Source: Escherichia phage HK542
Sequence record: NC_019769.1
Direction: 5' to 3' (one strand)
DNA: 38,964 bases
The notes beneath the pieces were generated by a model that was not told the DNA's origin, made no database searches, and saw only the letters and a program-made list of their open reading frames with translations. The translations under genes were made by a program, and so were the position numbers. This document shows positions 2,008-38,964 of the stretch, one piece after another; the stretch's first letter is position 1, and each line of letters opens with the position of its first letter.

Positions 2008-3281
2008 TGGAAGAACCTAAATACACGATTGACCTGCGAACCAATAACGGCTGGTGGGCAAGGCTGCAGTCCTGGTTTGTCGGCGGGCGTTTAGTCACCC
2101 CAAATCAGGGCTCACAGACGGGGCCTGTTTCGGCCCACGGACACCTGGGCGATTCATCCATTAACGATGAACGGATACTGCAAATTTCGACTGTGTGGCG
2201 CTGCGTGAGCCTGATTTCAACGCTCACGGCATGCTTACCGCTTGATGTCTTCGAAACAGACCAGAATGACAACCGTAAAAAAGTGGATTTGAGCAATCCA
2301 CTGGCGCGACTGCTGCGCTACTCACCGAATCAGTACATGACCGCCCAAGAATTCAGGGAGGCCATGACGATGCAGCTCTGTTTCTACGGTAACGCATATG
2401 CACTTGTGGACCGCAACAGCGCAGGTGACGTGATCAGCCTTCTCCCGCTTCAGTCTGCCAATATGGATGTGAAGCTCGTCGGAAAAAAAGTGGTTTATCG
2501 CTATCAACGCGACAGCGAATACGCCGACTTTTCGCAGAAAGAGATTTTTCACCTTAAAGGCTTCGGATTCACCGGGCTTGTAGGCCTGTCACCCATTGCT
2601 TTTGCCTGTAAATCGGCAGGTGTGGCAGTTGCGATGGAGGACCAGCAGCGAGATTTCTTTGCCAACGGCGCCAAGTCTCCGCAAATCCTCTCAACTGGCG
2701 AAAAAGTGCTAACTGAACAGCAGCGCTCCCAGGTCGAAGAGAACTTCAAAGAGATCGCCGGCGGCCCGGTAAAAAAACGCCTCTGGATTCTGGAAGCGGG
2801 TTTTTCTACATCGGCAATTGGCGTAACTCCGCAGGATGCCGAAATGATGGCGTCCCGAAAATTTCAGGTAAGTGAACTGGCGCGATTCTTTGGCGTACCG
2901 CCTCACCTTGTCGGCGACGTCGAGAAATCAACGAGCTGGGGATCGGGCATCGAGCAGCAGAATCTCGGCTTCCTGCAGTACACCCTGCAGCCCTATATCT
3001 CCAGGTGGGAAAACAGCATTCAGCGGTGGCTTATTCCTGCTAAGGATGTTGGCCGCATTCATGCTGAGCACAACCTCGACGGCCTGCTGAGGGGCGATTC
3101 GGCATCCCGCGCTGCCTTTATGAAGGCAATGGGAGAGGCAGGGCTACGCACCATCAACGAGATGCGACGAACGGACAACCTCCCGCCATTGCCGGGTGGC
3201 GATGTGGCAATGCGCCAGTCGCAATACGTGCCGATCACCGATTTAGGAACCAACAAAGAGCCCCGTAATAACGGGGCTTAA
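2004..3281 (+). CDS. Portal protein, HK97 family
   Basis: 425 aa, overlaps terL stop; typical portal position and size upstream of the prohead protease. Confidence 0.88.
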   Translation: MMEEPKYTIDLRTNNGWWARLQSWFVGGRLVTPNQGSQTGPVSAHGHLGDSSINDERILQISTVWRCVSLISTLTACLPLDVFETDQNDNRKKVDLSNPLARLLRYSPNQYMTAQEFREAMTMQLCFYGNAYALVDRNSAGDVISLLPLQSANMDVKLVGKKVVYRYQRDSEYADFSQKEIFHLKGFGFTGLVGLSPIAFACKSAGVAVAMEDQQRDFFANGAKSPQILSTGEKVLTEQQRSQVEENFKEIAGGPVKKRLWILEAGFSTSAIGVTPQDAEMMASRKFQVSELARFFGVPPHLVGDVEKSTSWGSGIEQQNLGFLQYTLQPYISRWENSIQRWLIPAKDVGRIHAEHNLDGLLRGDSASRAAFMKAMGEAGLRTINEMRRTDNLPPLPGGDVAMRQSQYVPITDLGTNKEPRNNGA

Positions 3282-3286
3282 TTTTT

Positions 3287-3976
3287 ATGGGGGCCGTAAT
3301 GCCTGAAATCGTAAAAACGCTGTCCTTCGACGAGACAGAAATCAAATTCACCGGTGACGGTAAACAGGGGATTTTTGAAGGCTACGCCTCTGTTTTTAAT
3401 AACACCGATTCCGATGGCGACATCATTCTGCCCGGGGCGTTTAAAAACGCGCTGGCGAACCAGACCCGAAAAGTGGCGATGTTTTTTAACCACAGGACGT
3501 GGGAACTGCCGGTTGGCAAATGGGACAGCCTGGCTGAGGACGAAAAAGGCCTGTATGTGCGCGGTCAACTTACCCCAGGACACAGCGGCGCCGCTGACCT
3601 GAAAGCGGCAATGCAGCACGGTACGGTTGAAGGTATGTCGGTTGGCTTTTCCGTTTCGAAAGACGATTACACCATCATTCCAACAGGCCGCATTTTTAAG
3701 AATATCCAGGCTCTGCGCGAAATCAGCGTCTGCACTTTCCCCGCCAACGAACAGGCTGGCATCGCAGCCATGAAAAGTGTCGATGGTATTGAAACGATTC
3801 GTGATGTGGAGAACTGGCTGAGGGATTCAGTCGGCCTCACCAAATCACAGGCAGTTGGGCTAATTGCCCGGTTTAAGTCAGCGATTCGGAGCGAGTCCGA
3901 GGGCGACGGAAACGAAGCACAAATAAACGCTCTGCTTCAGAGCATCAAATCTTTCCCTTCTAACTTAGGTAAATAA
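3287..3976 (+). CDS. Prohead maturation protease (HK97 family, peptidase U35-like)
   Basis: 229 aa between portal and capsid gene; N-terminal region typical of HK97-type prohead proteases; alternative start at ATG 3299. Confidence 0.85.
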   Translation: MGAVMPEIVKTLSFDETEIKFTGDGKQGIFEGYASVFNNTDSDGDIILPGAFKNALANQTRKVAMFFNHRTWELPVGKWDSLAEDEKGLYVRGQLTPGHSGAADLKAAMQHGTVEGMSVGFSVSKDDYTIIPTGRIFKNIQALREISVCTFPANEQAGIAAMKSVDGIETIRDVENWLRDSVGLTKSQAVGLIARFKSAIRSESEGDGNEAQINALLQSIKSFPSNLGK

Positions 3977-3978
3977 TT

Positions 3979-5136
3979 ATGTCTGAACTCGCTCTCATTC
4001 AAAAAGCTATCGAAGAATCCCAGCAGAAAATGACCCAGCTTTTCGATGCGCAGAAAGCAGAAATCGAAAGCACAGGCCAGGTTTCCAAACAGTTGCAGTC
4101 CGACCTGATGAAAGTACAGGAAGAGCTGACCAAATCCGGCACTCGCCTCTTCGATCTGGAACAGAAACTGGCATCCGGCGCTGAGAATCCTGGTGAGAAG
4201 AAATCCTTCTCTGAACGGGCTGCTGAAGAGCTTATTAAGTCATGGGACGGTAAACAGGGCACCTTTGGCGCTAAAACGTTTAACAAGTCACTAGGCAGTG
4301 ACGCTGATTCGGCTGGCTCACTGATCCAGCCTATGCAGATCCCAGGCATCATCATGCCAGGCCTGCGCCGTCTTACCATTCGTGATCTGCTGGCTCAGGG
4401 CCGCACTTCCAGTAACGCTCTGGAATATGTGCGTGAAGAGGTGTTTACCAATAACGCCGACGTGGTGGCAGAGAAAGCACTGAAGCCAGAATCGGATATC
4501 ACCTTCAGCAAACAAACCGCGAACGTGAAGACCATCGCGCACTGGGTGCAGGCATCACGTCAGGTGATGGATGATGCGCCAATGCTTCAGTCCTACATTA
4601 ACAACCGCCTCATGTACGGCCTGGCACTGAAGGAAGAGGGCCAGCTGCTGAACGGCGACGGTACCGGGGATAACCTGGAAGGGCTGAACAAAGTGGCAAC
4701 CGCCTATGACACCTCGCTGAATGCCACCGGCGACACCCGCGCTGACATTATCGCTCACGCTATTTATCAGGTGACCGAGTCTGAGTTCAGCGCTTCCGGT
4801 ATCGTCCTGAACCCGCGCGACTGGCACAACATCGCGTTGCTGAAAGACAATGAAGGCCGCTATATCTTCGGTGGTCCTCAGGCATTCACCAGTAACATCA
4901 TGTGGGGCTTGCCAGTGGTTCCGACTAAGGCGCAGGCCGCCGGCACCTTTACCGTAGGCGGTTTCGATATGGCCTCACAGGTCTGGGATCGCATGGATGC
5001 CACCGTGGAAGTTAGCCGTGAAGACCGCGATAACTTCGTGAAAAACATGCTGACCATCCTGTGCGAAGAGCGTCTGGCGCTGGCGCATTATCGCCCGACA
5101 GCAATCATCAAGGGCACCTTCTCTTCTGGCTCATGA
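3979..5136 (+). CDS. Major capsid protein, HK97 fold
   Basis: 385 aa; from memory, matches HK97 gp5 along its length, including the delta-domain boundary (FNKS/LGSDADSAG) and the Lys (AEKALKPESD) and Asn (SREDRDNFVKNM) crosslink contexts. Confidence 0.95.
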   Translation: MSELALIQKAIEESQQKMTQLFDAQKAEIESTGQVSKQLQSDLMKVQEELTKSGTRLFDLEQKLASGAENPGEKKSFSERAAEELIKSWDGKQGTFGAKTFNKSLGSDADSAGSLIQPMQIPGIIMPGLRRLTIRDLLAQGRTSSNALEYVREEVFTNNADVVAEKALKPESDITFSKQTANVKTIAHWVQASRQVMDDAPMLQSYINNRLMYGLALKEEGQLLNGDGTGDNLEGLNKVATAYDTSLNATGDTRADIIAHAIYQVTESEFSASGIVLNPRDWHNIALLKDNEGRYIFGGPQAFTSNIMWGLPVVPTKAQAAGTFTVGGFDMASQVWDRMDATVEVSREDRDNFVKNMLTILCEERLALAHYRPTAIIKGTFSSGS

Positions 5137-5142
5137 TGGAGG

Positions 5143-5164
5143 GGGCGGGGAAACCCGCCCTTTT
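5143..5164 (+). terminator. Hairpin with GAAA loop and short T-run after capsid gene
   Basis: gggcggg-gaaa-cccgccc followed by tttt, 7 nt after the capsid stop. Confidence 0.45.
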
Positions 5165-5169
5165 AACGT

Positions 5170-5496
5170 ATGGCGATAGATGTTCTGGATGTAATTTCCC
5201 TCAGTCTGTTTAAGCAGCAGATTGAGTTTGAGGAAGACGACAGGGACGAGCTGATCACGCTGTACGCCCAGGCCGCTTTTGACTACTGCATGCGCTGGTG
5301 CGATGAACCAGCATGGAAGGTTGCGGCTGATATTCCTGCCGCCGTTAAGGGCGCCGTTCTGCTTGTCTTTGCTGACATGTTTGAACACCGGACGGCACAA
5401 AGCGAAGTGCAGCTTTATGAGAATGCAGCCGCCGAACGCATGATGTTCATTCATCGCAACTGGCGCGGTAAAGCCGAATCAGAGGAGGGCTCCTGA
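5170..5496 (+). CDS. Head-tail connector (gp6-like)
   Basis: 108-aa ORF directly after capsid gene; size and position. Confidence 0.6.
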   Translation: MAIDVLDVISLSLFKQQIEFEEDDRDELITLYAQAAFDYCMRWCDEPAWKVAADIPAAVKGAVLLVFADMFEHRTAQSEVQLYENAAAERMMFIHRNWRGKAESEEGS

Positions 5497-5834
5497 TGGA
5501 ACCAGGACGATTCAGGCACCGGGTAAAAATTCTCACCTTCACGACTTCGCGCGATCCATCTGGTCAGCCGGTTGAATCGTGGACAGGTGGCAACCCGGTC
5601 CCGGCTGAGGTAAAGGGGATCAGCGGCAGAGAGCAGCTTTCAGGCGGCGCGGAAACGGCGCAGGCAACGATTCGCGTCTGGATGCGCTTCAGGTCAGAGC
5701 TGAATGCCTCTTCTCGTCTGGAAGTGCTCAGCGGCCCGTATAAAGGTCAGGTGCTAAATATCATCGGTCCTCCTGTAGCAAATGCGACTGGCACTCGCCT
5801 GGAAATTCTTTGCAAAACGGGAGCTGAAAAATGA
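5496..5834 (+). CDS. Head closure / head-tail adaptor protein
   Basis: 112-aa ORF with start/stop overlap to neighbours; position in head-tail joining block. Confidence 0.6.
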   Translation: MEPGRFRHRVKILTFTTSRDPSGQPVESWTGGNPVPAEVKGISGREQLSGGAETAQATIRVWMRFRSELNASSRLEVLSGPYKGQVLNIIGPPVANATGTRLEILCKTGAEK

Positions 5835-6280
5835 TTGAGACGAGCCTCGATTTTTCCGGGTTAAATGACATCGCAAAGGATCTGGAGGCGCTTAGCCGCG
5901 CTGAAAACAATAAGGTTCTTCGTGATGCCACCCGCGCCGGCGCGGAAGTGCTTAAGGAAGAAGTGATCGCCCGCGCTCCGGTGCGTACCGGCAAACTGAA
6001 AAAAAACGTGGTGGTGGTGACCCAAAAAAGCCGTCGCCGCGGGGAAATTTCTTCCGGCGTCCATATTCGTGGCGTTAACCCGCGCACCGGAAACAGCGAT
6101 AACACGATGAAGGCTAATAACCCGAGAAACGCCTTTTACTGGCGATTCGTTGAAATGGGAACTGCCAACATGACGGCACATCCTTTCATTCGTCCAGCGT
6201 TTGACGTCCGACAGGAGCAGGCGACAGAGGTCGCGATCAGGCGCATGAACCAGGCCATCGATGAGGCATTAAGCAAATGA
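5831..6280 (+). CDS. HK97 gp10-family tail component
   Basis: 149 aa; motifs APVRTGKL and FVEMGT...HPFIRPAF typical of the HK97 gp10-like family. Confidence 0.7.
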   Translation: MIETSLDFSGLNDIAKDLEALSRAENNKVLRDATRAGAEVLKEEVIARAPVRTGKLKKNVVVVTQKSRRRGEISSGVHIRGVNPRTGNSDNTMKANNPRNAFYWRFVEMGTANMTAHPFIRPAFDVRQEQATEVAIRRMNQAIDEALSK

Positions 6281-6624
6281 CGGAAGACGATCTCTATCCT
6301 CTGCTGGAACCGCTGGCAGGAGGGCAGGTTTATCCCTACGTTGCGCCGCTCGGCAGTGACGGGAAGCCTTCAGTATCTCCGCCCTGGGTAATTTTCTCGA
6401 TTATTACCGACGTGGCCGCAGACGTTCTCTGCGGTCAGGCTGAATCTGCCGTTTCTGTGCAGGTTGATGTCTATTCCAGCACAATCACTGAAGCGCGCAC
6501 AATCAGGAATATGGCGCTTGATGCCCTGCAGGTGCTGAAGCCGGGAAGCATTGTTAAAACGCCGGGCTATGAGCCTGATCTGCGCTATCACCGGGCAACG
6601 CTCGAATTTCAGGTAACCGTTTAA
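6277..6624 (+). CDS. Tail completion protein (DUF3168-like)
   Basis: 115 aa, overlapping upstream stop; position before major tail gene. Confidence 0.55.
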   Translation: MTEDDLYPLLEPLAGGQVYPYVAPLGSDGKPSVSPPWVIFSIITDVAADVLCGQAESAVSVQVDVYSSTITEARTIRNMALDALQVLKPGSIVKTPGYEPDLRYHRATLEFQVTV

Positions 6625-6640
6625 CTTTTCCCACCATAAC

Positions 6641-6665
6641 AGACCGCTCTGGCGGTCTTTTTTTA
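6641..6665 (+). terminator. Intrinsic terminator-like hairpin before major tail gene
   Basis: agaccgc-tctg-gcggtct followed by tttttttat. Confidence 0.6.
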
Positions 6666-6677
6666 TCTGGAGAAATC

Positions 6678-7148
6678 ATGACCAGTAAGTATGAAGTTAC
6701 AAAGGGGATGACCTTTGCCGTCTCCGACGCACCCGTAACCGCCGAGGATTTTAATGCCTTAGGTTTCCCGGGGGATGGTGTTACCTGGCTGGAAGCGGCC
6801 TGCGCAACAAAGGAGATCACCTTCACGGGCGGTCAAAAAGGGGATATTGACGTAACCACGCTTTGCTCAACTGAACAGGAGCAAACCAACGGCCTCGCCG
6901 CGCCTGCTGAAATGAGCATTACCCGTAACTGGGTTGGCGATGAAGCAGCACAGGGGGCACTGCAGACCGCTTACGAAAATGACGAACTGCGCGCGCTGCG
7001 CGTGGTATTCCCGTCTGGCAACGGTTTCTACGTGCTGGTGGAGGTACGCCAGAGCTCATGGTCTGCTGCAACCTCTTCCGTTGTTGGCGCCACCTATTCT
7101 CTGCGTGTACGCGGCAAACCTAAACGCATCCACGCGTCTGGTTCCTGA
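6678..7148 (+). CDS. Major tail (tube) protein
   Basis: 156 aa with strong RBS; directly upstream of the G/GT chaperone pair; followed by a terminator hairpin. Confidence 0.75.
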   Translation: MTSKYEVTKGMTFAVSDAPVTAEDFNALGFPGDGVTWLEAACATKEITFTGGQKGDIDVTTLCSTEQEQTNGLAAPAEMSITRNWVGDEAAQGALQTAYENDELRALRVVFPSGNGFYVLVEVRQSSWSAATSSVVGATYSLRVRGKPKRIHASGS

Positions 7149-7170
7149 GCGGCTTCGGCCGCTTTTTTTA
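7148..7170 (+). terminator. Intrinsic terminator-like hairpin after major tail gene
   Basis: agcggc-ttcg-gccgct with a UUCG-type loop followed by ttttttt. Confidence 0.6.
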
Positions 7171-7202
7171 TCCCTCCGATCATGTAACAAGAGAAAAATG
7201 AA

Positions 7203-7604
7203 ATGGCGCAAAAAACATCACAGAATTCATTACGCAACGTGGCGCTTACAGCATCGAAAGCCTATCGCACCAAAGAAGGTATCACGGTCCCTGAATGGGA
7301 TGGCGCAAAGGTAACGCTGCGTGAACCCTCTGGCGATGCCTGGGTGAAATTCCGGGAGATCGTTAACCCACAGCTCGCCGAGGGCGAAGAGGCACCGACG
7401 CTGACGGAGGCGGAAAAGTTTCTGCGTAACAAAGATGCTGATGTGGTTCTGTTTATTGACGTTCTGCTGGATGAAAACGGCGAGCGAGTATTCAGCGATG
7501 AGGATCAGGAGCAGGTATCTAAAATTTATGGTCCTGTGCACTCCCGCCTGCTGGCTCAGGCCCTCAACCTCGGAATGAGCCAGGAAGAAGCGGGAAAGCC
7601 GTAA
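7203..7604 (+). CDS. Tail assembly chaperone (lambda G analogue)
   Basis: 133-aa acidic ORF ending just after the slippery heptamer GGGAAAG. Confidence 0.75.
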   Translation: MAQKTSQNSLRNVALTASKAYRTKEGITVPEWDGAKVTLREPSGDAWVKFREIVNPQLAEGEEAPTLTEAEKFLRNKDADVVLFIDVLLDENGERVFSDEDQEQVSKIYGPVHSRLLAQALNLGMSQEEAGKP

Positions 7605-24671: not shown

Positions 24672-25295
24672 CTATGCGGCTTCGGAAGGAAGTCCAATCA
24701 TCTTATTCAAATCTTCTACCCGTAAAGCAGGAAGTGCTGTACTTGCTTTATCTGCTTCTTTTGGTAGCAATTCTTTGCTTTCAGGCCAAACTTCAATAAG
24801 TCGCTTAACTGTTGTGACTGAGTTCAAAGCAGCCCATACATTTGATTCGATATCCTTTTTCTTGGCTTCAAGTTTTTGTTGCAATGCGCAGATTTCATCA
24901 AACCTTTTTGTTATTTCGTGTTCTGCGTCAAACATGCATTTATCTTTGGTCGGAGTAGGGAGCAATATATCTTCGCCGTTGCCGTCTTTCCCATATGAAA
25001 GCCATCCAACCCTTCTGCCAGATACAGTCAGATAAATTGAAGTAGAACGAACATCGTATGAGTAAAATGAACATCCCATCTTTCCAAGTTCTTCACTTAT
25101 AGCTACCAACTTGGATGATAACTGATCCACTTCCTCAGTTTTCTTTTTACCGCAAAACGCAATAACTCTGGCGTCAAGTGCAAGCTGGTTCTTTAACTTT
25201 GTTACTTCTTCAAGTTCAGTGAAAACCCCAGACTTAATTAAAGCGTTACGAGCGATTTCCTCTTTCATTCTCGTAGTTAAGCGGATTGATGACAT
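24672..25295 (-). CDS. Hypothetical 207-aa protein (AT-rich, adjacent to N)
   Basis: ATG 25295 with GAGGAA RBS; no TM segment; charged coiled-coil-like stretches; lower GC than neighbours. Confidence 0.55.
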   Translation of the reverse strand: MSSIRLTTRMKEEIARNALIKSGVFTELEEVTKLKNQLALDARVIAFCGKKKTEEVDQLSSKLVAISEELGKMGCSFYSYDVRSTSIYLTVSGRRVGWLSYGKDGNGEDILLPTPTKDKCMFDAEHEITKRFDEICALQQKLEAKKKDIESNVWAALNSVTTVKRLIEVWPESKELLPKEADKASTALPALRVEDLNKMIGLPSEAA

Positions 25296-25306
25296 ATTAA
25301 TTCCTC

Positions 25307-25633
25307 TCAAATAAGTGGTTTGCTGCCTAATTTCATTTTCTGGCGACCAACACAAGTCACACCCATTTCACTGCGTGGCTTGCTGTACCATGTGCGCTGA
25401 TTCTTGCGCTCAATACGTTGCAGGTTGCTTTCAATCTGTTCGTGGTATTCAGCCAGCACCGTAAGGTCTATCGGATTCAGTGCGCTGTCTACTCGTGATT
25501 TCGGTTTGCGATTCAGCGAGAGAATAGGGCGGTTAACTGGTTTTGCGCTTACCCCAACCAACAGGGGATTTGCTGCTTTCCATTGAGCCTGTTTCTCTGC
25601 GCGACGTTCGCGGCGGCGTGTTTGTGCATCCAT
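25307..25633 (-). CDS. N: Antitermination protein N
   Basis: 108 aa from ATG 25633 with AGGAG RBS; from memory, near-identical to lambda N including the Arg-rich motif MDAQTRRRERRAEKQAQWKAAN. Confidence 0.92.
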   Translation of the reverse strand: MDAQTRRRERRAEKQAQWKAANPLLVGVSAKPVNRPILSLNRKPKSRVDSALNPIDLTVLAEYHEQIESNLQRIERKNQRTWYSKPRSEMGVTCVGRQKMKLGSKPLI

Positions 25634-33311: not shown

Positions 33312-33496
33312 ACGCCACAATTCAAACGATACCAGAGCTTCTTATCCAGACACGAGGCAATCAGACCGAAGTGGCGAGGATGCTTTCCTGCGCAAGAGGA
33401 ACAGTGCTCAAGTACAACCGAGACAGCAAAGGTGAGCGTCACGTAATAGTTAACGGCGTCCTGATGGTCAAACAGGGCAAGAGGGGAAGACCATGA
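33308..33496 (+). CDS. ninH: NinH-like HTH protein
   Basis: 62 aa; motif GNQTEVARMLSCARGTVLKY resembles lambda NinH. Confidence 0.7.
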   Translation: MNATIQTIPELLIQTRGNQTEVARMLSCARGTVLKYNRDSKGERHVIVNGVLMVKQGKRGRP

Positions 33497-34116
33497 GACT
33501 CGAAAGCGTAGCTAAATTTCACTCGCCAAAAAGCCCGATGATGAGCGACTCACCACGGGCCACGGCTTCTGACTCTCTTTCCGGTACTGATGTGATGGCT
33601 GCTATGGGGATGGCGCAATCACAAGCCGGATTCGGAATGGCTGCATTCTGCGGTAAGCATGAACTCAGCCAGAACGACAAACAAAAGGCTATCAACTATC
33701 TGATGCAATTTGCACACAAGGTATCGGGGAAATACCGTGGTGTGGCAAAGCTTGAAGGAAATACTAAGGCAAAGGTACTGCAAGTTCTCGCAACATTCGC
33801 TTATGCGGATTATTGCCGTAGTGCCGCGACGCCGGGTGCAAGATGCAGAGATTGCCACGGTACAGGTCGGGCGGTTGATATTGCCAAAACAGAGCTGTGG
33901 GGGAGAGTTGTTGAGAAAGAATGCGGAAGATGCAAAGGTGTCGGCTATTCAAGAATGCCAGCAAGCGCCGCATATCGCGCTGTAACGATGCTAATCCCAA
34001 ACCTCACCCAACCCACCTGGTCACGCACTGTTAAGCCGCTGTATGACGCTCTGGTGGTGCAATGCCACAAGGAAGAGTCAATTGCAGACAACATTTTGAA
34101 CGCGGTCACACGTTAG
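33493..34116 (+). CDS. Q: Late antiterminator Q
   Basis: 207 aa; from memory, near-identical to lambda Q, including the zinc-finger Cys cluster. Confidence 0.95.
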   Translation: MRLESVAKFHSPKSPMMSDSPRATASDSLSGTDVMAAMGMAQSQAGFGMAAFCGKHELSQNDKQKAINYLMQFAHKVSGKYRGVAKLEGNTKAKVLQVLATFAYADYCRSAATPGARCRDCHGTGRAVDIAKTELWGRVVEKECGRCKGVGYSRMPASAAYRAVTMLIPNLTQPTWSRTVKPLYDALVVQCHKEESIADNILNAVTR

Positions 34117-34158: not shown

Positions 34159-34195
34159 TTGACTTTTTGAATAAAGTTGGGTAAATTTGACATCA
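34159..34195 (+). promoter_or_regulatory. Late promoter PR' with qut region
   Basis: TTGACT (34159-34164), 17-bp spacer, TAAATT (34182-34187); matches lambda PR' as remembered. Confidence 0.75.
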
Positions 34196-34224
34196 ACGAT
34201 GGATAAATGCACTCGTTAAATAAA

Positions 34225-34253
34225 GCCCTGAGTTAATAGCTCGGGGCTTTTTG
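34225..34253 (+). terminator. tR'-like intrinsic terminator about 60 nt after PR' start
   Basis: gccctgag-ttaatag-ctcggggc hairpin followed by ttttt. Confidence 0.6.
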
Positions 34254-34549
34254 CGTTTTAAGCACGGCCTTTCTGAAAGCACATCAAACCAAATACCAGA
34301 CAGACAATACCCTCACCTTATCCGCTGTGGCTACGGTGCGGTGTGCTTTGTATAAAAGAAAACCAGCTCAATGTCTGGCTTCGTGAAAGCGGGTGGCAGG
34401 AGGTTGCGCTAACAACCTCATGCCGTTTTGCCCGTGCATATCGGTCACGAACAAATCTGATTACTAAACACAGTAACCTGGATTTGTTCTATCAGTAATC
34501 GACCTTATTCCTAATTAAATAGAGCAAATCCCCTTATTGGGGGTAAGAC

Positions 34550-34873
34550 ATGAAGATGCCAGAAAAACATGACCTGTTAGCCGCCATTCTCGCGGCAAAG
34601 GAACAAGGCATCGGGGCAATCCTTGCGTTTGCAATGGCGTACCTTCGCGGCAGATATAATGGCGGGGCGTTTACAAAAACAGTAATCGACGCAACGATGT
34701 GCGCCATTATCGCCTGGTTCATTCGTGACCTTCTCGGCTTCGCCGGACTAAGTAGCAATCTCGCTTATATAACGAGCGTGTTTATCGGCTACATCGGTAC
34801 TGACTCGATTGGTTCGCTTATCAAACGCTTCGCTGCTAAAAAAGCCGGAGTAGAAGATGGTGGGAATCAATAA
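34550..34873 (+). CDS. S: Holin S (dual-start MKM motif)
   Basis: 107 aa beginning [10 protein letters not shown] with three TM segments; from memory, near-identical to lambda S. Confidence 0.95.
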
Positions 34874-35333
34874 TCAACGTAAGGCGTTCCTCGATATGCT
34901 GGCATGGTCAGAGGGAACTGATAACGGACGTCAGAAAACCAGAAATCATGGTTATGACGTCATTGTAGGCGGAGAGCTATTCACTGATTACTCCGATCAC
35001 CCTCGCAAACTTGTCACGCTAAACCCCAAACTCAAATCAACAGCAGCCGGACGTTACCAGCTTCTTTCCCGTTGGTGGGATGCCTACCGCAAGCAGCTTG
35101 GCCTGAAAGACTTCTCTCCGAAAAGCCAGGACGCTGTGGCATTGCAGCAGATTAAAGAGCGTGGCGCTTTGCCGATGATTGATCGTGGTGATATTCGTCA
35201 GGCAATTGACCGTTGCAGCAATATCTGGGCTTCACTGCCGGGCGCTGGTTATGGTCAGTTCGAGCATAAGGCTGACAGCCTGATTGCAAAATTCAAAGAG
35301 GCTGGCGGAACGGTCAGAGAGATTGAGGTATGA
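34857..35333 (+). CDS. R: Endolysin R (lytic transglycosylase)
   Basis: 158 aa; from memory, near-identical to lambda R. Confidence 0.95.
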
Positions 35334-35767
35334 GCAGAGTCACCGCGATTATCTCCGCTCTGGTTATCTGCATCATCGTTTGCCTGTCATGGGCTGTTAA
35401 TCATTACCGTGATAACGCCATCTCCTACAAAGAGCAGCGCGATAAAGCCACATCCATCATCGCTGATATGCAGAAGCGTCAACGTGATGTAGCAGAGCTC
35501 GACGCCAGATACACAAAGGAGCTTGCTGATGCTAACGCGACTATCGAAAGCCTCCGTGCTGATGTTTCTGCTGGTCGTAAGCGCCTGCAAGTCGCCGCCA
35601 CCTGTGCAAAGTCAACGACCGGAGCCAGCGGCATGGGCGATGGAGAAAGCCCAGGACTTACAGCAGATGCTGAACTCAATTATTACCGTCTCCGAATTGG
35701 AATCGACAGGATAACCGCGCAGGTTAACTACCTGCAGGAGTACATCAGGACGCAATGCCTGAAGTAA
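35330..35767 (+). CDS. Rz: Inner-membrane spanin Rz
   Basis: 145 aa with N-terminal TM helix and coiled-coil periplasmic domain; overlaps R stop. Confidence 0.9.
35523..35714 (+). CDS. Rz1: Outer-membrane lipoprotein spanin Rz1 (embedded in Rz, +1 frame)
   Basis: 63 aa with lipobox VVSAC and Pro-rich mature region, wholly inside Rz. Confidence 0.8.
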
Positions 35768-35798
35768 TTTTTTTGCAAATCACAAAGTCCATTTAATG

Positions 35799-35823
35799 AG
35801 CCTCGCGATGCGGGGCTTTTTTA
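35799..35823 (+). terminator. Intrinsic terminator after lysis cassette
   Basis: agcctcgc-gat-gcggggct hairpin followed by tttttt. Confidence 0.55.
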
Positions 35824-35972
35824 CATCTGCAGTAAACGCGCATTCTCGTGCGCATATCAACCAAGAGCTTTTCGGGATATGAGACAGAGACAGGACGGTG
35901 GCTTACATCGTGCCGCTCTTGGGCTGTCCATGTCTGCGAGAACTGGCTCATATCACCAAAAAGGTAAATACG

Positions 35973-36200
35973 ATGTCCAATATCATCCCGATTGATTTCG
36001 AAGGCCATCCCATGCGTTTTTCTGACGATGGCTGGTTTGACGCGACTGCGGCAGCTGACAAGTTCAACAAGGAGCCGGCTCAGTGGCTTAGGCTTCCTGA
36101 GACTGTCCGTTACATCGAGGCGTTAAAGAGTAGATATGGGAATATCACATATGTAAAAACCAGCCGCGCTCGCAAAGACCGTGGCGGCGGTGGTCGATAA
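35973..36200 (+). CDS. KilA-N domain protein
   Basis: 75 aa from ATG 35973; IIPIDFEG..MRF..DGWFDATAAADKFNKEPAQWLRLPETVRYIEAL fits the KilA-N/APSES-type fold. Confidence 0.55.
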   Translation: MSNIIPIDFEGHPMRFSDDGWFDATAAADKFNKEPAQWLRLPETVRYIEALKSRYGNITYVKTSRARKDRGGGGR

Positions 36201-36209
36201 GGGGCTTTT

Positions 36210-37667
36210 ATGGAAGTCTCTATCAATGGCGTACCGTATGTACCAGCTGGTGCCGTATTCTCCCGGATTGGGATTGCAATAACGACGCACCAACGCGCCG
36301 ACGTTCTTAAACGAGCGCTCGAACAGCACATGAAACATCTTCCCGCCGGCGCGCTGGTGGTTGTTATCGATGATGGTTCAAAACCTGCAACGGAAGTTAC
36401 CGACGGCGTGCAGCTGCTTCGCAATGAAACATCACTCGGCATTGTTGCTTCGAAGAACGCCAGCCTGTCTGCCCTGATGGATGCCGGGTGCGAGCACCTG
36501 TTTTTATGGGATGACGACGCCTGGCCTATCGCCGACAACTGGCACCTGCCGTATATCGAATCTCCAGAGCCGCACCTGGCTTATCAGTTTCTCGATCTGG
36601 CTGGCCCGCGAAAGATTAACGATATGACCGTTCTGTACCGGGATGATAAGCATATTGCTTACACTGGGCAGCGCGGAGTGATGTTGTACTACCACCGCAG
36701 CGCCATCGAGAAGGTGGGCGGGTTCGATCCGGTGTATGGCCGGGGCATGTATGAGCATCCTGATCTGGCGCTTCGGATTTATAACGCTGGCTTAACGTCC
36801 TGGGCGTTTGCTGATGTGGTTGGCTCTGAAAAGCTGATTCATTCGATGGATGAATACGAAGAAGGCGCGCGCAGTATACCGAGGCCAGAACGTGAAGCGC
36901 TCGATAAAAAGAACGCTGTGATTTACGGGCAGCGCAGGGATTCAGGATATACAGGCTATGCCGAGTATCGATCTCAGCGTGACGTGGTCATCACTACGTT
37001 ACTAACCAGCCAGCCAGACCCGCAGCGCGGTACGAAAATGGCCGCCTCACCTGACATGCTGGCTAAATGGGCCTCATCGCTCCGGAATTGTGGCCGTATC
37101 GCGCTGGTGGATGAACTACAGACGGCACCGGCAGACGTTGAGCTGTACCGCGTTCCTGACGTGAAGATGAATGTCTACTTCCGGCGCTGGCTGCATATCT
37201 GGCAGCACCTGCGCGATCACCCTGAATATCGGTTCGTCTGGTGTACCGATGGTACCGACGTCGAAATGCTTCGCGCGCCGTGGGAAGAAATGCAGCCCGG
37301 GACTGTTTACGTCGGTTCTGAACCGAAGACCTACGCCGACACCTGGGCGAAACAGAATCATCCTGAGCGTATCTATCAGGAATTCATTGAAGCGCACCGC
37401 AACGATGTGATGCTTAACGCTGGTCTGCTGGGTGGCAGCCGCGCTGATGTAATGGCGTTCGCTCACGGCATCATCCGTCTTTACTACCGGATCGAGAGTT
37501 ATCGTTTCTGGAAGAAAGAACAGGCTGGCGCCGCGGTGGGTGACATGCTGGCATTCGGTATTGTCGCGCAGTCATTCGCTGACAGACTGGTCACCGGCCC
37601 TCTGGTACATACCGTTTTCAAAACTGATGGTATCGGTAAGGAGGCCGCATGGTGGAAACACAAGTGA
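36210..37667 (+). CDS. Putative two-domain glycosyltransferase (N-terminal GT2-like GT-A domain)
   Basis: 485 aa; GT2 hallmarks IGIAITTHQR, VVVIDDGS, WDDDAW (DXD), GGFDP...EHPDLALR; C-terminal half has a second GT-A-like pattern (VVITTLL...VWCTDGTDVEM); no TM segments; GC-rich. Confidence 0.7.
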   Translation: MEVSINGVPYVPAGAVFSRIGIAITTHQRADVLKRALEQHMKHLPAGALVVVIDDGSKPATEVTDGVQLLRNETSLGIVASKNASLSALMDAGCEHLFLWDDDAWPIADNWHLPYIESPEPHLAYQFLDLAGPRKINDMTVLYRDDKHIAYTGQRGVMLYYHRSAIEKVGGFDPVYGRGMYEHPDLALRIYNAGLTSWAFADVVGSEKLIHSMDEYEEGARSIPRPEREALDKKNAVIYGQRRDSGYTGYAEYRSQRDVVITTLLTSQPDPQRGTKMAASPDMLAKWASSLRNCGRIALVDELQTAPADVELYRVPDVKMNVYFRRWLHIWQHLRDHPEYRFVWCTDGTDVEMLRAPWEEMQPGTVYVGSEPKTYADTWAKQNHPERIYQEFIEAHRNDVMLNAGLLGGSRADVMAFAHGIIRLYYRIESYRFWKKEQAGAAVGDMLAFGIVAQSFADRLVTGPLVHTVFKTDGIGKEAAWWKHK

Positions 37668-38239
37668 AGTTTGTTGTGGTTGGCCATCACTCTCGCATAG
37701 GTTATGCGCAACGACTTGCCGCGATGCTGGATGCTCATCTGCTTATTGATGAAGGTAACCGCGGCGCTAACTGGAATCATCGTCGCGCTATCGAATGGGC
37801 TGCTGAGCAACCTTGCCGGGTAGTAGTGTTGGAAGACGACGCGCTTCCTGTGCAGGGCTTCACCGATAAGGTAACTGACTGGCTGGTGCGCTTCCCTGAC
37901 GACATGCTGAGCTTTTATCTCGGTACTGGCCGACCGCCGCAGTATCAGAAAGAGATTGCCGGAATGCTGGTGGATGCGGATCGCGTCTGTGGTGACCACA
38001 TCGTATTAAGCAAACTGATTCACGGCGTATGTTACAGCCCTCCTCAGGGCAGGCTGGGGCGCATGCTCAGCACCTGGAATAAAACGCTGGCAGCTGATTA
38101 CGCCGTCGGTGAGGCATTCGGTGGCCGGGTGATTTATCCGTGTTACTCGCTGGTGGATCACGCCGACATGCCGACAGTTGAGCGTCACCCTGACAACGAG
38201 CCGAGGACGGAACGCCGCCGCGCATGGAGACTGGCATGA
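37649..38239 (+). CDS. Putative nucleotide-sugar transferase-like protein
   Basis: 196 aa with AAGGAGG RBS, overlapping the upstream gene; FVVVGHH and VVVLEDDA resemble a GT-A strand plus DXD motif; weak evidence. Confidence 0.4.
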   Translation: MVETQVKFVVVGHHSRIGYAQRLAAMLDAHLLIDEGNRGANWNHRRAIEWAAEQPCRVVVLEDDALPVQGFTDKVTDWLVRFPDDMLSFYLGTGRPPQYQKEIAGMLVDADRVCGDHIVLSKLIHGVCYSPPQGRLGRMLSTWNKTLAADYAVGEAFGGRVIYPCYSLVDHADMPTVERHPDNEPRTERRRAWRLA

Positions 38240-38577
38240 ACAAAGAGCCCCGCGTATATGGCAGCCGATGGGATAAAGCCCGTCTGCGTTTCCTGCAGCA
38301 GCACCCACTATGTGTGATGTGCGAGCAGCAGGGGCGCATAACCCCAGCAACGGTGGTTGACCATATCGTGCCCCACAAACTGAAAGATGCGCTTAAGTCA
38401 GGTAACCCACTGGCCATATCGAAAGCACAGCTCCTGTTCTGGAGTAAAGAGAACTGGCAGCCACTGTGCAAAGCGCATCATGACTCAACGAAACAGAGAA
38501 TGGAGAAGAGCGGCACGGTAATAGGCTGTGATGCCAACGGCTACCCGCTCGATCCTGCGTCTCACTGGAGCACGTAA
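38224..38577 (+). CDS. HNH endonuclease (terminase-associated)
   Basis: 117 aa with HNH-type pattern (CVMCEQQG...VDHIVPH...LCKAHHD); alternative ATGA-coupled start at 38236; sits just upstream of terS on the circular map. Confidence 0.85.
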   Translation: METGMNKEPRVYGSRWDKARLRFLQQHPLCVMCEQQGRITPATVVDHIVPHKLKDALKSGNPLAISKAQLLFWSKENWQPLCKAHHDSTKQRMEKSGTVIGCDANGYPLDPASHWST

Positions 38578-38780
38578 TGAAAGACCTCAGCATTGAATAC
38601 CGAGACGGTAAGTTTGTTCAGCTGGCGATTGATGGCGTGGAGATGAAGCGCGTAACATCTATCCAGTTCTCCCACACCGTAGGCGAGGACGTACCGACAT
38701 TGACCGTCTCAGGACATGTGTGGTCCGAGTATGGGAAAGGCGATCACAAACTCGAACAGGTAGACAAACATTCGGCATAG
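38577..38780 (+). CDS. Hypothetical small protein
   Basis: 67-aa ORF with TAATG overlap to the HNH stop. Confidence 0.4.
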   Translation: MKDLSIEYRDGKFVQLAIDGVEMKRVTSIQFSHTVGEDVPTLTVSGHVWSEYGKGDHKLEQVDKHSA

Positions 38781-38964
38781 CGCGGCGGCGGCAAGTCGAT
38801 TATCTATCATGTGAAATCATTTCAAATGCAACGATATCAAATGAGAATGAATCGCATTCATGGCAGGGGGGGGATCAAATCTTCAAAACCTTTGCCCCAA
38901 ATGACCGCCGCCAAAGTTTGAATTTAACGCTAACCCGATTTTTTTAGTTTTAAGGTGTTGACAT

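Follow-up and report, generated by a model that had tools for sequence, protein, structure and literature searches.

What is a pair of glycosyltransferase (GT) genes doing in the late region of a lambdoid phage? We examined this question in Escherichia phage HK542 (NC_019769.1), the sequence of which, 38,964 bp in length and here referred to as the window, is a complete genome of a temperate HK97-like (Hendrixvirinae) phage starting at the ATG of the small terminase gene and corresponding to the IMG/VR contig UViG_2602041809_000001. Over its structural half the window shares 98.9% identity with Escherichia phage ECP1 (host MG1655) and 97.9% with mEp506. Near its right end, between the lysis gene Rz and the genes for an HNH endonuclease and the terminase, lies an inserted or replaced segment of about 2 kb with genes for two glycosyltransferases of 485 and 196 amino acids (aa), hereafter the cassette. 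The cassette probably serves the late-expressed O-glycosylation of virion proteins at a C-terminal serine. Beyond this phage, we lean towards the view that HK97-like phages of the Enterobacteriaceae put O-glycans on their capsids, tail tubes and perhaps connectors by means of a two-gene, three-domain cassette that reads a C-terminal Gly-Ser, with the same tag and the same enzyme family as in mycobacteriophages.

The smaller of the two genes (37649-38239, + strand) encodes a GT25-like protein of 196 aa that belongs to the PHROGs glycosyltransferase family phrog_854 (E = 6.7e-72). It is a homologue of gp110 of mycobacteriophage Che8, with 33% identity over 192 of the 196 aa in BLASTP (E = 3e-23). 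The motifs N-H, xLEDDAxP, SxYLG, H and SLxxHxD were invariant in the members from Che8, Velveteen, Ryadel, a Klebsiella jumbo phage, Salmonella, Cronobacter and E. coli, and the alignment columns E62-D63-D64, H125, H171 and D173 were invariant across entero- and actinophage members. Pfam GT25 (PF01755) was recognised in 4 of 14 relatives of the protein (best E = 1.2e-7). According to PMC12363180, which cites Freeman et al. 2023, the glycosyltransferases essential to the glycosylation of the capsid are gp110 in Che8 and gp38 in Corndog, and two further papers (PMC11256854, PMC11652166) describe mycobacteriophage capsid and/or tail proteins as O-glycosylated by phage glycosyltransferases and shielded from antibodies. 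Of the three roles that an initial annotation of this DNA had put forward, glycosylation of virion proteins is the one favoured by the homology to Che8 gp110, by synteny and by the association of the cassette with a particular C-terminus on head and tail proteins.

This C-terminus is Gly-Ser (GS). C-termini were compared because the mycobacteriophage glycans are reportedly attached, through O-linkage, to the C-terminal ends of the capsid and tail-tube subunits. Among the 175 six-frame open reading frames (ORFs) of at least 60 aa in the window, only three end in GS, and all three encode structural proteins on the + strand: the major capsid protein (MCP), which is of the HK97 gp5 type (385 aa, 3979-5136; phrog_10, E = 1.4e-86) and ends in ...GTFSSGS; the major tail (tube) protein (MTP; 156 aa, 6678-7148; phrog_158, E = 1.2e-40), which ends in ...IHASGS; and the head-tail adaptor Ad1 (108 aa, 5170-5496; phrog_40, E = 1.7e-26), which ends in ...SEEGS. 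We propose the first two, with GS codons at 5128-5133 and 7140-7145, as acceptors and the adaptor as a possible third; adaptor homologues in other GT-bearing loci were also GS-ended. Che8, Velveteen and Ryadel show a similar restriction: of their annotated left-arm genes, only those for the MCP and the MTP have a GS or DS ending (...TGS and ...DGS in Che8, ...DGS in both proteins of Velveteen, ...VGS and ...GDS in Ryadel). The corresponding MCP and MTP endings in the remaining GT-bearing phages were ...TAS (in a putative MCP) and ...DGS in Che9c, ...AGS and ...PGS in Salmonella phage FSL SP-016, ...ATS and ...PSS in Cronobacter phage ENT47670, and ...GGGA and ...ASGS in Fraca.

To quantify the association, we compared these termini with those of phages without the glycosyltransferases (lambda, L5, Bxb1, TM4, Giles, Halo and Rosebush). 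A terminal serine was present in 15 of 16 MCP and MTP termini of GT-bearing phages and in 1 of 12 control termini (Fisher p = 6e-6), and a terminal GS in 11 of 16 and 0 of 12, respectively (Fisher p = 2.5e-4), although the sets are small and the tests ignore phylogeny. In a set of 80 IMG/VR contigs with the small glycosyltransferase, GS endings were found in 50 of 52 MCPs, which represent three unrelated or distant sequence types, and in 29 of 30 MTPs of two types. Only the final G and S were invariant over 17 distinct MCP tails and 11 MTP tails, while positions -3 to -10 varied, and the MCPs of the GT-bearing phages had for the most part no mutual similarity detectable by BLAST. In P22 and BPP-1, coat proteins with the HK97 fold have their C-termini on the outside (PMC9962691, PMC3863775), and by analogy those of the window phage would be exposed on the capsid exterior too.

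The larger gene (36210-37667, + strand) encodes a two-domain protein of 485 aa in the PHROGs glycosyltransferase family phrog_1579 (E = 4e-251), which we regard as a putative glycan-extending enzyme. The family comprises 1448 clusters (50% identity) at E <= 1e-3 and 244 at E < 1e-30, and the top matches are mostly 450-500 aa in length and align end to end with the window protein. Glycosyltransferases of cluster-F mycobacteriophages, for example gp98 of Velveteen (E = 2e-120), are about 44% identical to it over residues 2-485, and a homologue in a jumbo Serratia/Klebsiella phage reaches 53%. The N-terminal domain (residues 18-243; 36261-36938, + strand) is probably a GT-A domain of the GT2/GT7/GT27-like kind, in agreement with the GT2 assignment made from its motifs: Pfam GT2 was detected in 62 of 79 relatives (best E = 5e-13) and Glyco_transf_7C in 55 of 79, and a PDB profile search yielded chondroitin synthase (1e-7), heparosan synthase, PglI, ppGalNAc-T1 and beta4GalT7. 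In the alignment of the 79 members, D55 and D103 were invariant and D54, D101 and D102 were at least 90% conserved, D101-D102-D103 being the DxD motif.

The C-terminal domain (residues 250-485; 36957-37664, + strand) is a different matter. Its conserved positions in the same alignment include DPQR, D347-x-x-D350, G369-x-E371, LNAG-x-GG and the C-terminal H484-K485, but the GT-A-like nature suggested for this half is putative. A Pfam search with 9 diverse representatives gave no match, the PDB matches were confined to the N-terminal domain, and the alignment of the two domains with hhalign (E = 0.021, probability 2%) placed WCTDG on FLWDDD. An hhalign comparison with the small glycosyltransferase yielded no convincing relationship. 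The likeness to GT-A is at the level of motifs only (D347/D350, LNAGxxGG), and the AF2 (AlphaFold2) model of the domain shows an alpha/beta alternation at pLDDT < 60. Searches with the window proteins themselves added little: PDB searches with single glycosyltransferase sequences gave chance matches only, such as proteasome beta4, NCBIfam gave only far-sub-threshold GT2-type matches for the cassette proteins, and a Foldseek search of the low-confidence model of the 196-aa protein against PDB returned nothing at E <= 1e-3, only generic Rossmann-like noise.

We also examined the order of genes around homologous cassettes. In Velveteen the same ordered pair, gp98 and gp100, stands at the end of the genome immediately before HNH-TerS-TerL, and the order GT-GT-HNH-(cos)-TerS-TerL is thus common to both phages, with an extra ORF between HNH and TerS in the window. 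In Che8 the equivalent place is taken by gp108-110, gp111 and the HNH gene gp112. The Corndog-like phage Ryadel has a methyltransferase and three glycosyltransferases, including the gp110 homologue, between the portal and protease genes, whereas in ENT47670, the structural genes of which are of a different type, the pair directly follows the major tail gene inside the tail operon. The pair also forms a two-gene unit, in the same order, in Klebsiella/Serratia jumbo phages. Since the window HNH protein has no similarity to that of Che8, and the 485-aa protein none to Che8 gp108 or gp109, the synteny is positional rather than inherited as a block. In tblastn searches against phage genomes, 719 records contained a homologue of the small enzyme and 610 a homologue of the large one, and most of these were mycobacteriophages (662 and 568, respectively).

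Two further arrangements deserve mention. In ENT47670 the glycosyltransferase pair (40111-42143) separates the major tail gene from the chaperone/tape-measure genes, while a complete GtrA/GtrB/GtrC module for O-antigen conversion (4622-7334) lies by the integrase, so that a single phage has two separate glycosylation systems. In HK633 (2574-4117) a small gp110-type glycosyltransferase is preceded by an ORF on the opposite strand, an arrangement that may represent the cassette in its minimal form, with a single enzyme.

The linkage to structural genes bears on the first alternative, namely that the sugars are transferred, in the course of lytic growth, to a host protein, a defence factor or a small molecule, as part of host takeover or counter-defence. 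Late or lytic expression would fit such a role, and the copies in jumbo phages lie outside recognisable structural operons. PADLOC, however, gave no match, the target would need to be conserved between Actinobacteria and Enterobacteria, and neither the repeated linkage to head and tail genes nor the association with GS termini would be explained. We consider this alternative unlikely.

Glycosylation of the virion, on the other hand, would call for late expression, and the position of the cassette predicts it. The late operon at the right end runs in the order Q, pR'-like promoter and tR'-like terminator, holin, endolysin, Rz (to 35767), three ORFs, HNH, a small ORF, cos and TerS/TerL. A promoter/terminator scan located the pR'-like late promoter at 34159-34187 (+ strand), just downstream of Q (33493-34116) and at the same offset from it as the annotated PR'/qut of HK633, and the tR'-like terminator at 34222-34250 (+ strand). 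A simple consensus scan of the + strand from 34188 to 38964 found no further sigma-70-like site. The promoter and terminator would drive a late operon that contains the cassette.

Downstream, the HNH gene (38236-38577, + strand; Pfam HNH, E = 1.3e-5; phrog_2323, E = 3.2e-53) is of the HK97 gp74 type. It starts at 38236 rather than at 38224, its start overlaps the stop of the 196-aa glycosyltransferase gene as ATGA, and mEp506 has the equivalent coding sequence. The small ORF between HNH and cos/TerS encodes 67 aa (38577-38780, + strand; phrog_10282, E = 2.7e-47) and is kept in the window phage, ECP1 and mEp506. A strong terminator-like hairpin at 35798-35818 (+ strand), with a 9 bp stem of which 6 are GC pairs and a subsequent T-run, is located 30 nucleotides past Rz and 5' of the ORFs of the cassette region. 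Everything downstream of it, including the packaging genes across cos, would therefore need Q-mediated read-through. A search of the whole window yielded no tRNA genes; in the close relative mEp506, the region from pR' to the holin gene (window 34250-34550) holds tRNA-Asn and tRNA-Thr.

The predicted expression with the lysis and packaging genes is difficult to reconcile with lysogenic conversion, according to which the enzymes would modify lipopolysaccharide (LPS) core, O-antigen units or capsule at the cytoplasmic face of the membrane and thereby change the serotype or block superinfection. The slot for accessory genes that separates Rz from the packaging genes is hypervariable, the GT2 and GT25 families hold many LPS and O-antigen enzymes, and it is among prophages of encapsulated or O-antigen-diverse Enterobacteriaceae that the cassette is most often found. 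Yet no promoter was found between pR' and the cassette, which is coupled into the late operon, and full-length homologous pairs are present in mycobacteriophages, the hosts of which have no LPS, as well as in virulent or jumbo phages. ENT47670, moreover, keeps its GtrABC module by int and its glycosyltransferase pair in the tail operon. Nor do the cassette proteins resemble GtrABC-type enzymes: membrane segments are missing, as the initial annotation had pointed out (the maximum Kyte-Doolittle 19-mer means were 1.37, 0.92 and -0.19 over the three ORFs, so that no hydrophobic 19-mer exceeds 1.37), and the cassette is about 15 kb from the integrase ORF. Modification of LPS or O-antigen in lysogens, another of the roles suggested earlier, is accordingly disfavoured, and we rate it slightly below host takeover.

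Glycosylation of DNA bases in the manner of the T4 alpha/beta-glucosyltransferases or the TET-associated glycosyltransferases is far less probable still. Two observations had pointed this way, namely weak matches to Pfam TAGT (PF20691) in 14 of 79 relatives of the 485-aa protein (best E = 2.5e-5) and a gene for a Nmad5 (Nucleotide modification associated domain 5) protein at 24672-25355. The lead was rejected. The window protein itself has no TAGT match, and such matches in its relatives are far fewer than those to GT2 and Glyco_transf_7C, as expected from cross-matching among GT-A domains. Furthermore, no hydroxymethylase, TET or thymidylate-synthase-like enzyme was found among the 10 early-region proteins scanned, Nmad5 homologues do not track the cassette but are common in lambdoid and Stx phages without the glycosyltransferases, and the mycobacteriophage homologues are linked to protein glycosylation. 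The Nmad5 protein has 227 aa (- strand; Pfam E = 4.5e-72) and is encoded just downstream of the N/immunity region; homologues were found in mEp235, many Stx1/Stx2-converting phages, Kapi1, and Pseudomonas and Vibrio phages.

The remaining question is whether the genes are functional at all. The three + strand ORFs of the initial annotation were recovered at 35973-36200 (75 aa), 36210-37667 and 37649-38239, together with the motifs quoted from them (ALVVVIDDGS, LFLWDDDAW and YEHPDLALR in the 485-aa protein, CRVVVLEDDA in the 196-aa protein). Shine-Dalgarno sequences precede both glycosyltransferase genes (AAGGGG before 36210, AAGGAGG before 37649), which overlap each other by 19 nucleotides, and the overlapping GT/GT/HNH reading frames suggest translational coupling. 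The dN/dS values, calculated against 25-32 homologues, were 0.115 for the 485-aa and 0.143 for the 196-aa protein. Because of the ribosome-binding sites, the coupling overlaps and dN/dS values of 0.12-0.14, we conclude that both genes are real and under purifying selection. That the segment is inert or decaying hitch-hiker DNA, for which one might cite the neighbouring gene truncated by the insertion and the rarity of the cassette in E. coli, is hardly credible given intact reading frames, this level of constraint and catalytic motifs conserved across phyla.

The boundaries of the segment are defined by the loss and return of homology to relatives without the glycosyltransferases. In blastn against mEp506, positions 35301-36190 were 98.3% identical and positions from 38210 onward 97.0% identical, with nothing aligned in between, which places the cassette at 36191-38209. 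In the corresponding interval mEp506 and HK97 have the remainder of a gene for a 242-aa protein with KilA-N and P63C domains, followed by two small ORFs. The 75-aa ORF upstream of the glycosyltransferases (+ strand), taken earlier for a KilA-N protein and third cargo gene, is rather the stump of this gene, cut by the insertion: it matches residues 1-73 of HK97 gp73 (242 aa, KilA-N and P63C) residue for residue and then ends in GR-stop. Pfam KilA-N (PF04383; E = 3.9e-9, 36.7 bits) covers only model positions 4-74 of 107 in this ORF, and the domain is thus incomplete. A similar KilA-N stump of 76 aa in HK633 is followed by a different insert with the small glycosyltransferase only. Taken together, the homology breakpoints, the identity to gp73 residues 1-73 and the HK633 stump indicate, at the level of sequence comparison, that the KilA-N junction is a recurrent recombination point in a hypervariable accessory slot and that KilA-N is not part of the cargo. 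The left junction differs even between near-identical phages, since in ECP1 (2216-2776) an extra gene for a 186-aa HNH endonuclease abuts the 5' end of the cassette, along with a different KilA-N gene and a small ORF. A homing-type nuclease of this kind may help to move the cassette.

The cassette was described earlier as unusual cargo for this locus, but it recurs at the same place in several phages and in hundreds of enterobacterial prophage proteins. Phages with the cassette at the same locus are ECP1, LMessi, Fostie, SaltyDalty, CharmingMan, mEp390, Cronobacter ENT39118 and Aeromonas AsXd-1, and also Salmonella FSL SP-016. The cassette proteins are abundant in genomes of Enterobacter, Citrobacter, Cronobacter, Klebsiella and Salmonella, with top matches of 92-94% identity, whereas most of the cassette was present in only 2 of 5426 complete E. 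coli genomes. The G+C content of the block is raised, as had been observed, with values of 0.53-0.58 over 36.0-38.4 kb as compared to 0.45-0.52 in the lysis region. This elevation and the contrast between rarity in E. coli and abundance in the other genera suggest that the cassette was imported from prophages of higher-GC Enterobacteriaceae.

How might such a virion-glycosylation module work? We envisage a portable unit that would be transcribed only within the Q-antiterminated late operon, together with the genes for lysis, packaging and morphogenesis. The soluble enzymes would modify freshly synthesised structural proteins in the cytoplasm, where the GT25-like protein of 196 aa would recognise the free C-terminal -Gly-Ser of the MCP, the MTP and possibly Ad1 and put the first sugar on the terminal serine. 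We tentatively assign the initiating step to this protein, since no other component is as widespread among the phages searched and it is the sole glycosyltransferase of the pair in HK633. The two domains of the 485-aa enzyme may subsequently extend the glycan from host nucleotide sugars (UDP-sugars), and no sugar-nucleotide genes were noticed in the window. After assembly, heads and tails would display short O-glycans in the hundreds on C-termini exposed at the surface. A possible benefit is shielding from antibodies or proteases, or altered adhesion, by analogy with what has been proposed for mycobacteriophages.

Several observations weigh against virion glycosylation, in addition to the small and phylogenetically uncorrected control sets. 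HK97, which has no glycosyltransferase genes, keeps ...SSGS on gp5 and ...EEGS on gp6, while its gp12 ends in ...TIS, and the structural genes of mEp506, likewise without the glycosyltransferases, are 97.9% identical to those of the window. Hence the GS motif in this lineage is not confined to carriers of the cassette and may have another role; modules may be exchanged frequently, or the enzymes may exploit a motif that was there before them. Fraca carries the cassette, yet its MCP ends in ...AAGGGA, as compared to ...GAGS in most close relatives. In the jumbo phage KpSz_1, 3 of 412 ORFs of at least 100 aa in ~295 kb end in GS, with no MCP-sized ORF among them, and this genome thus speaks for the GS rule only weakly. 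Individually, the window proteins score poorly: the 196-aa protein reaches no Pfam threshold, and the 485-aa protein remains below it for GT2 (PF00535; residues 22-109, 21.1 bits as compared to a cut-off of 23.3), its C-terminal domain having a putative catalytic role. Structure prediction, which had been recommended for assigning the glycosyltransferase family, was run and returned two models of low confidence (pLDDT 44.6 and 55.3) from input alignments of homologues that were 78-94% identical and not diverse. The lack of a promoter proper to the cassette is the outcome of a simple consensus scan. Finally, none of the papers searched that cite Freeman et al. 2023 treats an enterobacterial phage.

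Some of these genomes show additional features of interest. Fraca (4587-5807 and 39824-40411) has both glycosyltransferase genes, the small one unannotated under short ORF calls, and its MTP as well as a tail-fibre protein end in ...SGS; the phage may be a natural loss-of-tag variant. A candidate acceptor in KpSz_1, a Serratia/Klebsiella jumbo phage, is a 178-aa virion structural protein of phrog_2935 (113779-114315, stitched) that ends in ...DGFGS. The MTP of the window is a short form of 156 aa, whereas HK97 gp12 (6733-7437) has 234 aa with a C-terminal extension ending in ...TLTIS, and one GT-bearing contig has the 234-aa form with the ending ...TLTVN. Extension of the tail-tube protein may be one way of decorating the surface and the GS tag another.

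Neither the protein families nor the generic glycosyltransferase label is new, as both are already in PHROGs and RefSeq, and phage-encoded O-glycosylation of virions is known as a kind of system from mycobacteriophages. Among the papers searched that cite Freeman et al. 2023 we found no report of enterobacterial HK97-like phages with a homologous cassette and a matching C-terminal tag. Should our interpretation be correct, several consequences follow. Phages of Gram-negative bacteria would have their first virion-glycosylation system; we know of no demonstration of virion glycosylation by phage-encoded enzymes outside the mycobacteriophages, and Freeman et al. 2023 reportedly saw little evidence for it in other phages. 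The cassette and its tag would also represent an ancient pair of enzyme and tag that works across phyla. The phenomenon would be placed in the best-understood capsid system, HK97 gp5 itself bearing the tag, and families labelled generic or hypothetical in prophages of Enterobacter, Citrobacter, Klebsiella, Cronobacter and Salmonella would gain a function. The pair could be transferred to any coat protein, including HK97 gp5, for glyco-engineering in E. coli, and would provide a compact genetic tool for glycan shields on therapeutic phages or on nanoparticles of the HK97/encapsulin type. The interpretation is testable in E. coli K-12 with the existing phages ECP1 and mEp390.

Of the systems with which the cassette can be compared, those of Che8 and Corndog share with it a full-length homologue of Che8 gp110 and Ryadel gp39, an operon of several glycosyltransferases by HNH/terminase or inside the head genes, and an MCP and MTP that end in Gly-Ser. 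They differ in that the host of the window phage is a Gram-negative enterobacterium and the phage an HK97-like lambdoid, in that the partner enzyme is the two-domain protein of 485 aa in place of gp108/gp109, and in that the window has no methyltransferase, whereas the Corndog type combines a methyltransferase with three glycosyltransferases. The variant pair of mycobacteriophage clusters F and I (Velveteen gp98 and gp100; the gp82 region of Che9c) has both families in the same order, at about 44% and 31% identity and with similar sizes in Velveteen (478 aa as compared to 485, and 203 as compared to 196). Velveteen differs by a small ORF, gp99, between the two genes and by the G+C content of its genome and the phylum of its host. 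The GtrABC modules are also glycosyltransferase cargo of temperate enterobacterial phages, but consist of membrane proteins that are encoded by int/att and expressed in lysogens, whereas the window enzymes are soluble and encoded in the late operon. With the GT25 family, which comprises bacterial LPS beta-1,4-galactosyltransferases and animal collagen galactosyltransferases and hence includes enzymes that O-glycosylate proteins, the 196-aa protein shares the EDD motif and relatives that match PF01755, although it is shorter and falls below the Pfam threshold. The T4 alpha/beta-glucosyltransferases and the TET-associated enzymes, finally, are soluble and phage-encoded as well, and some relatives of the 485-aa protein show weak TAGT cross-matches, but these are minor relative to GT2, and the 10 early proteins scanned offered no pathway for modified bases.

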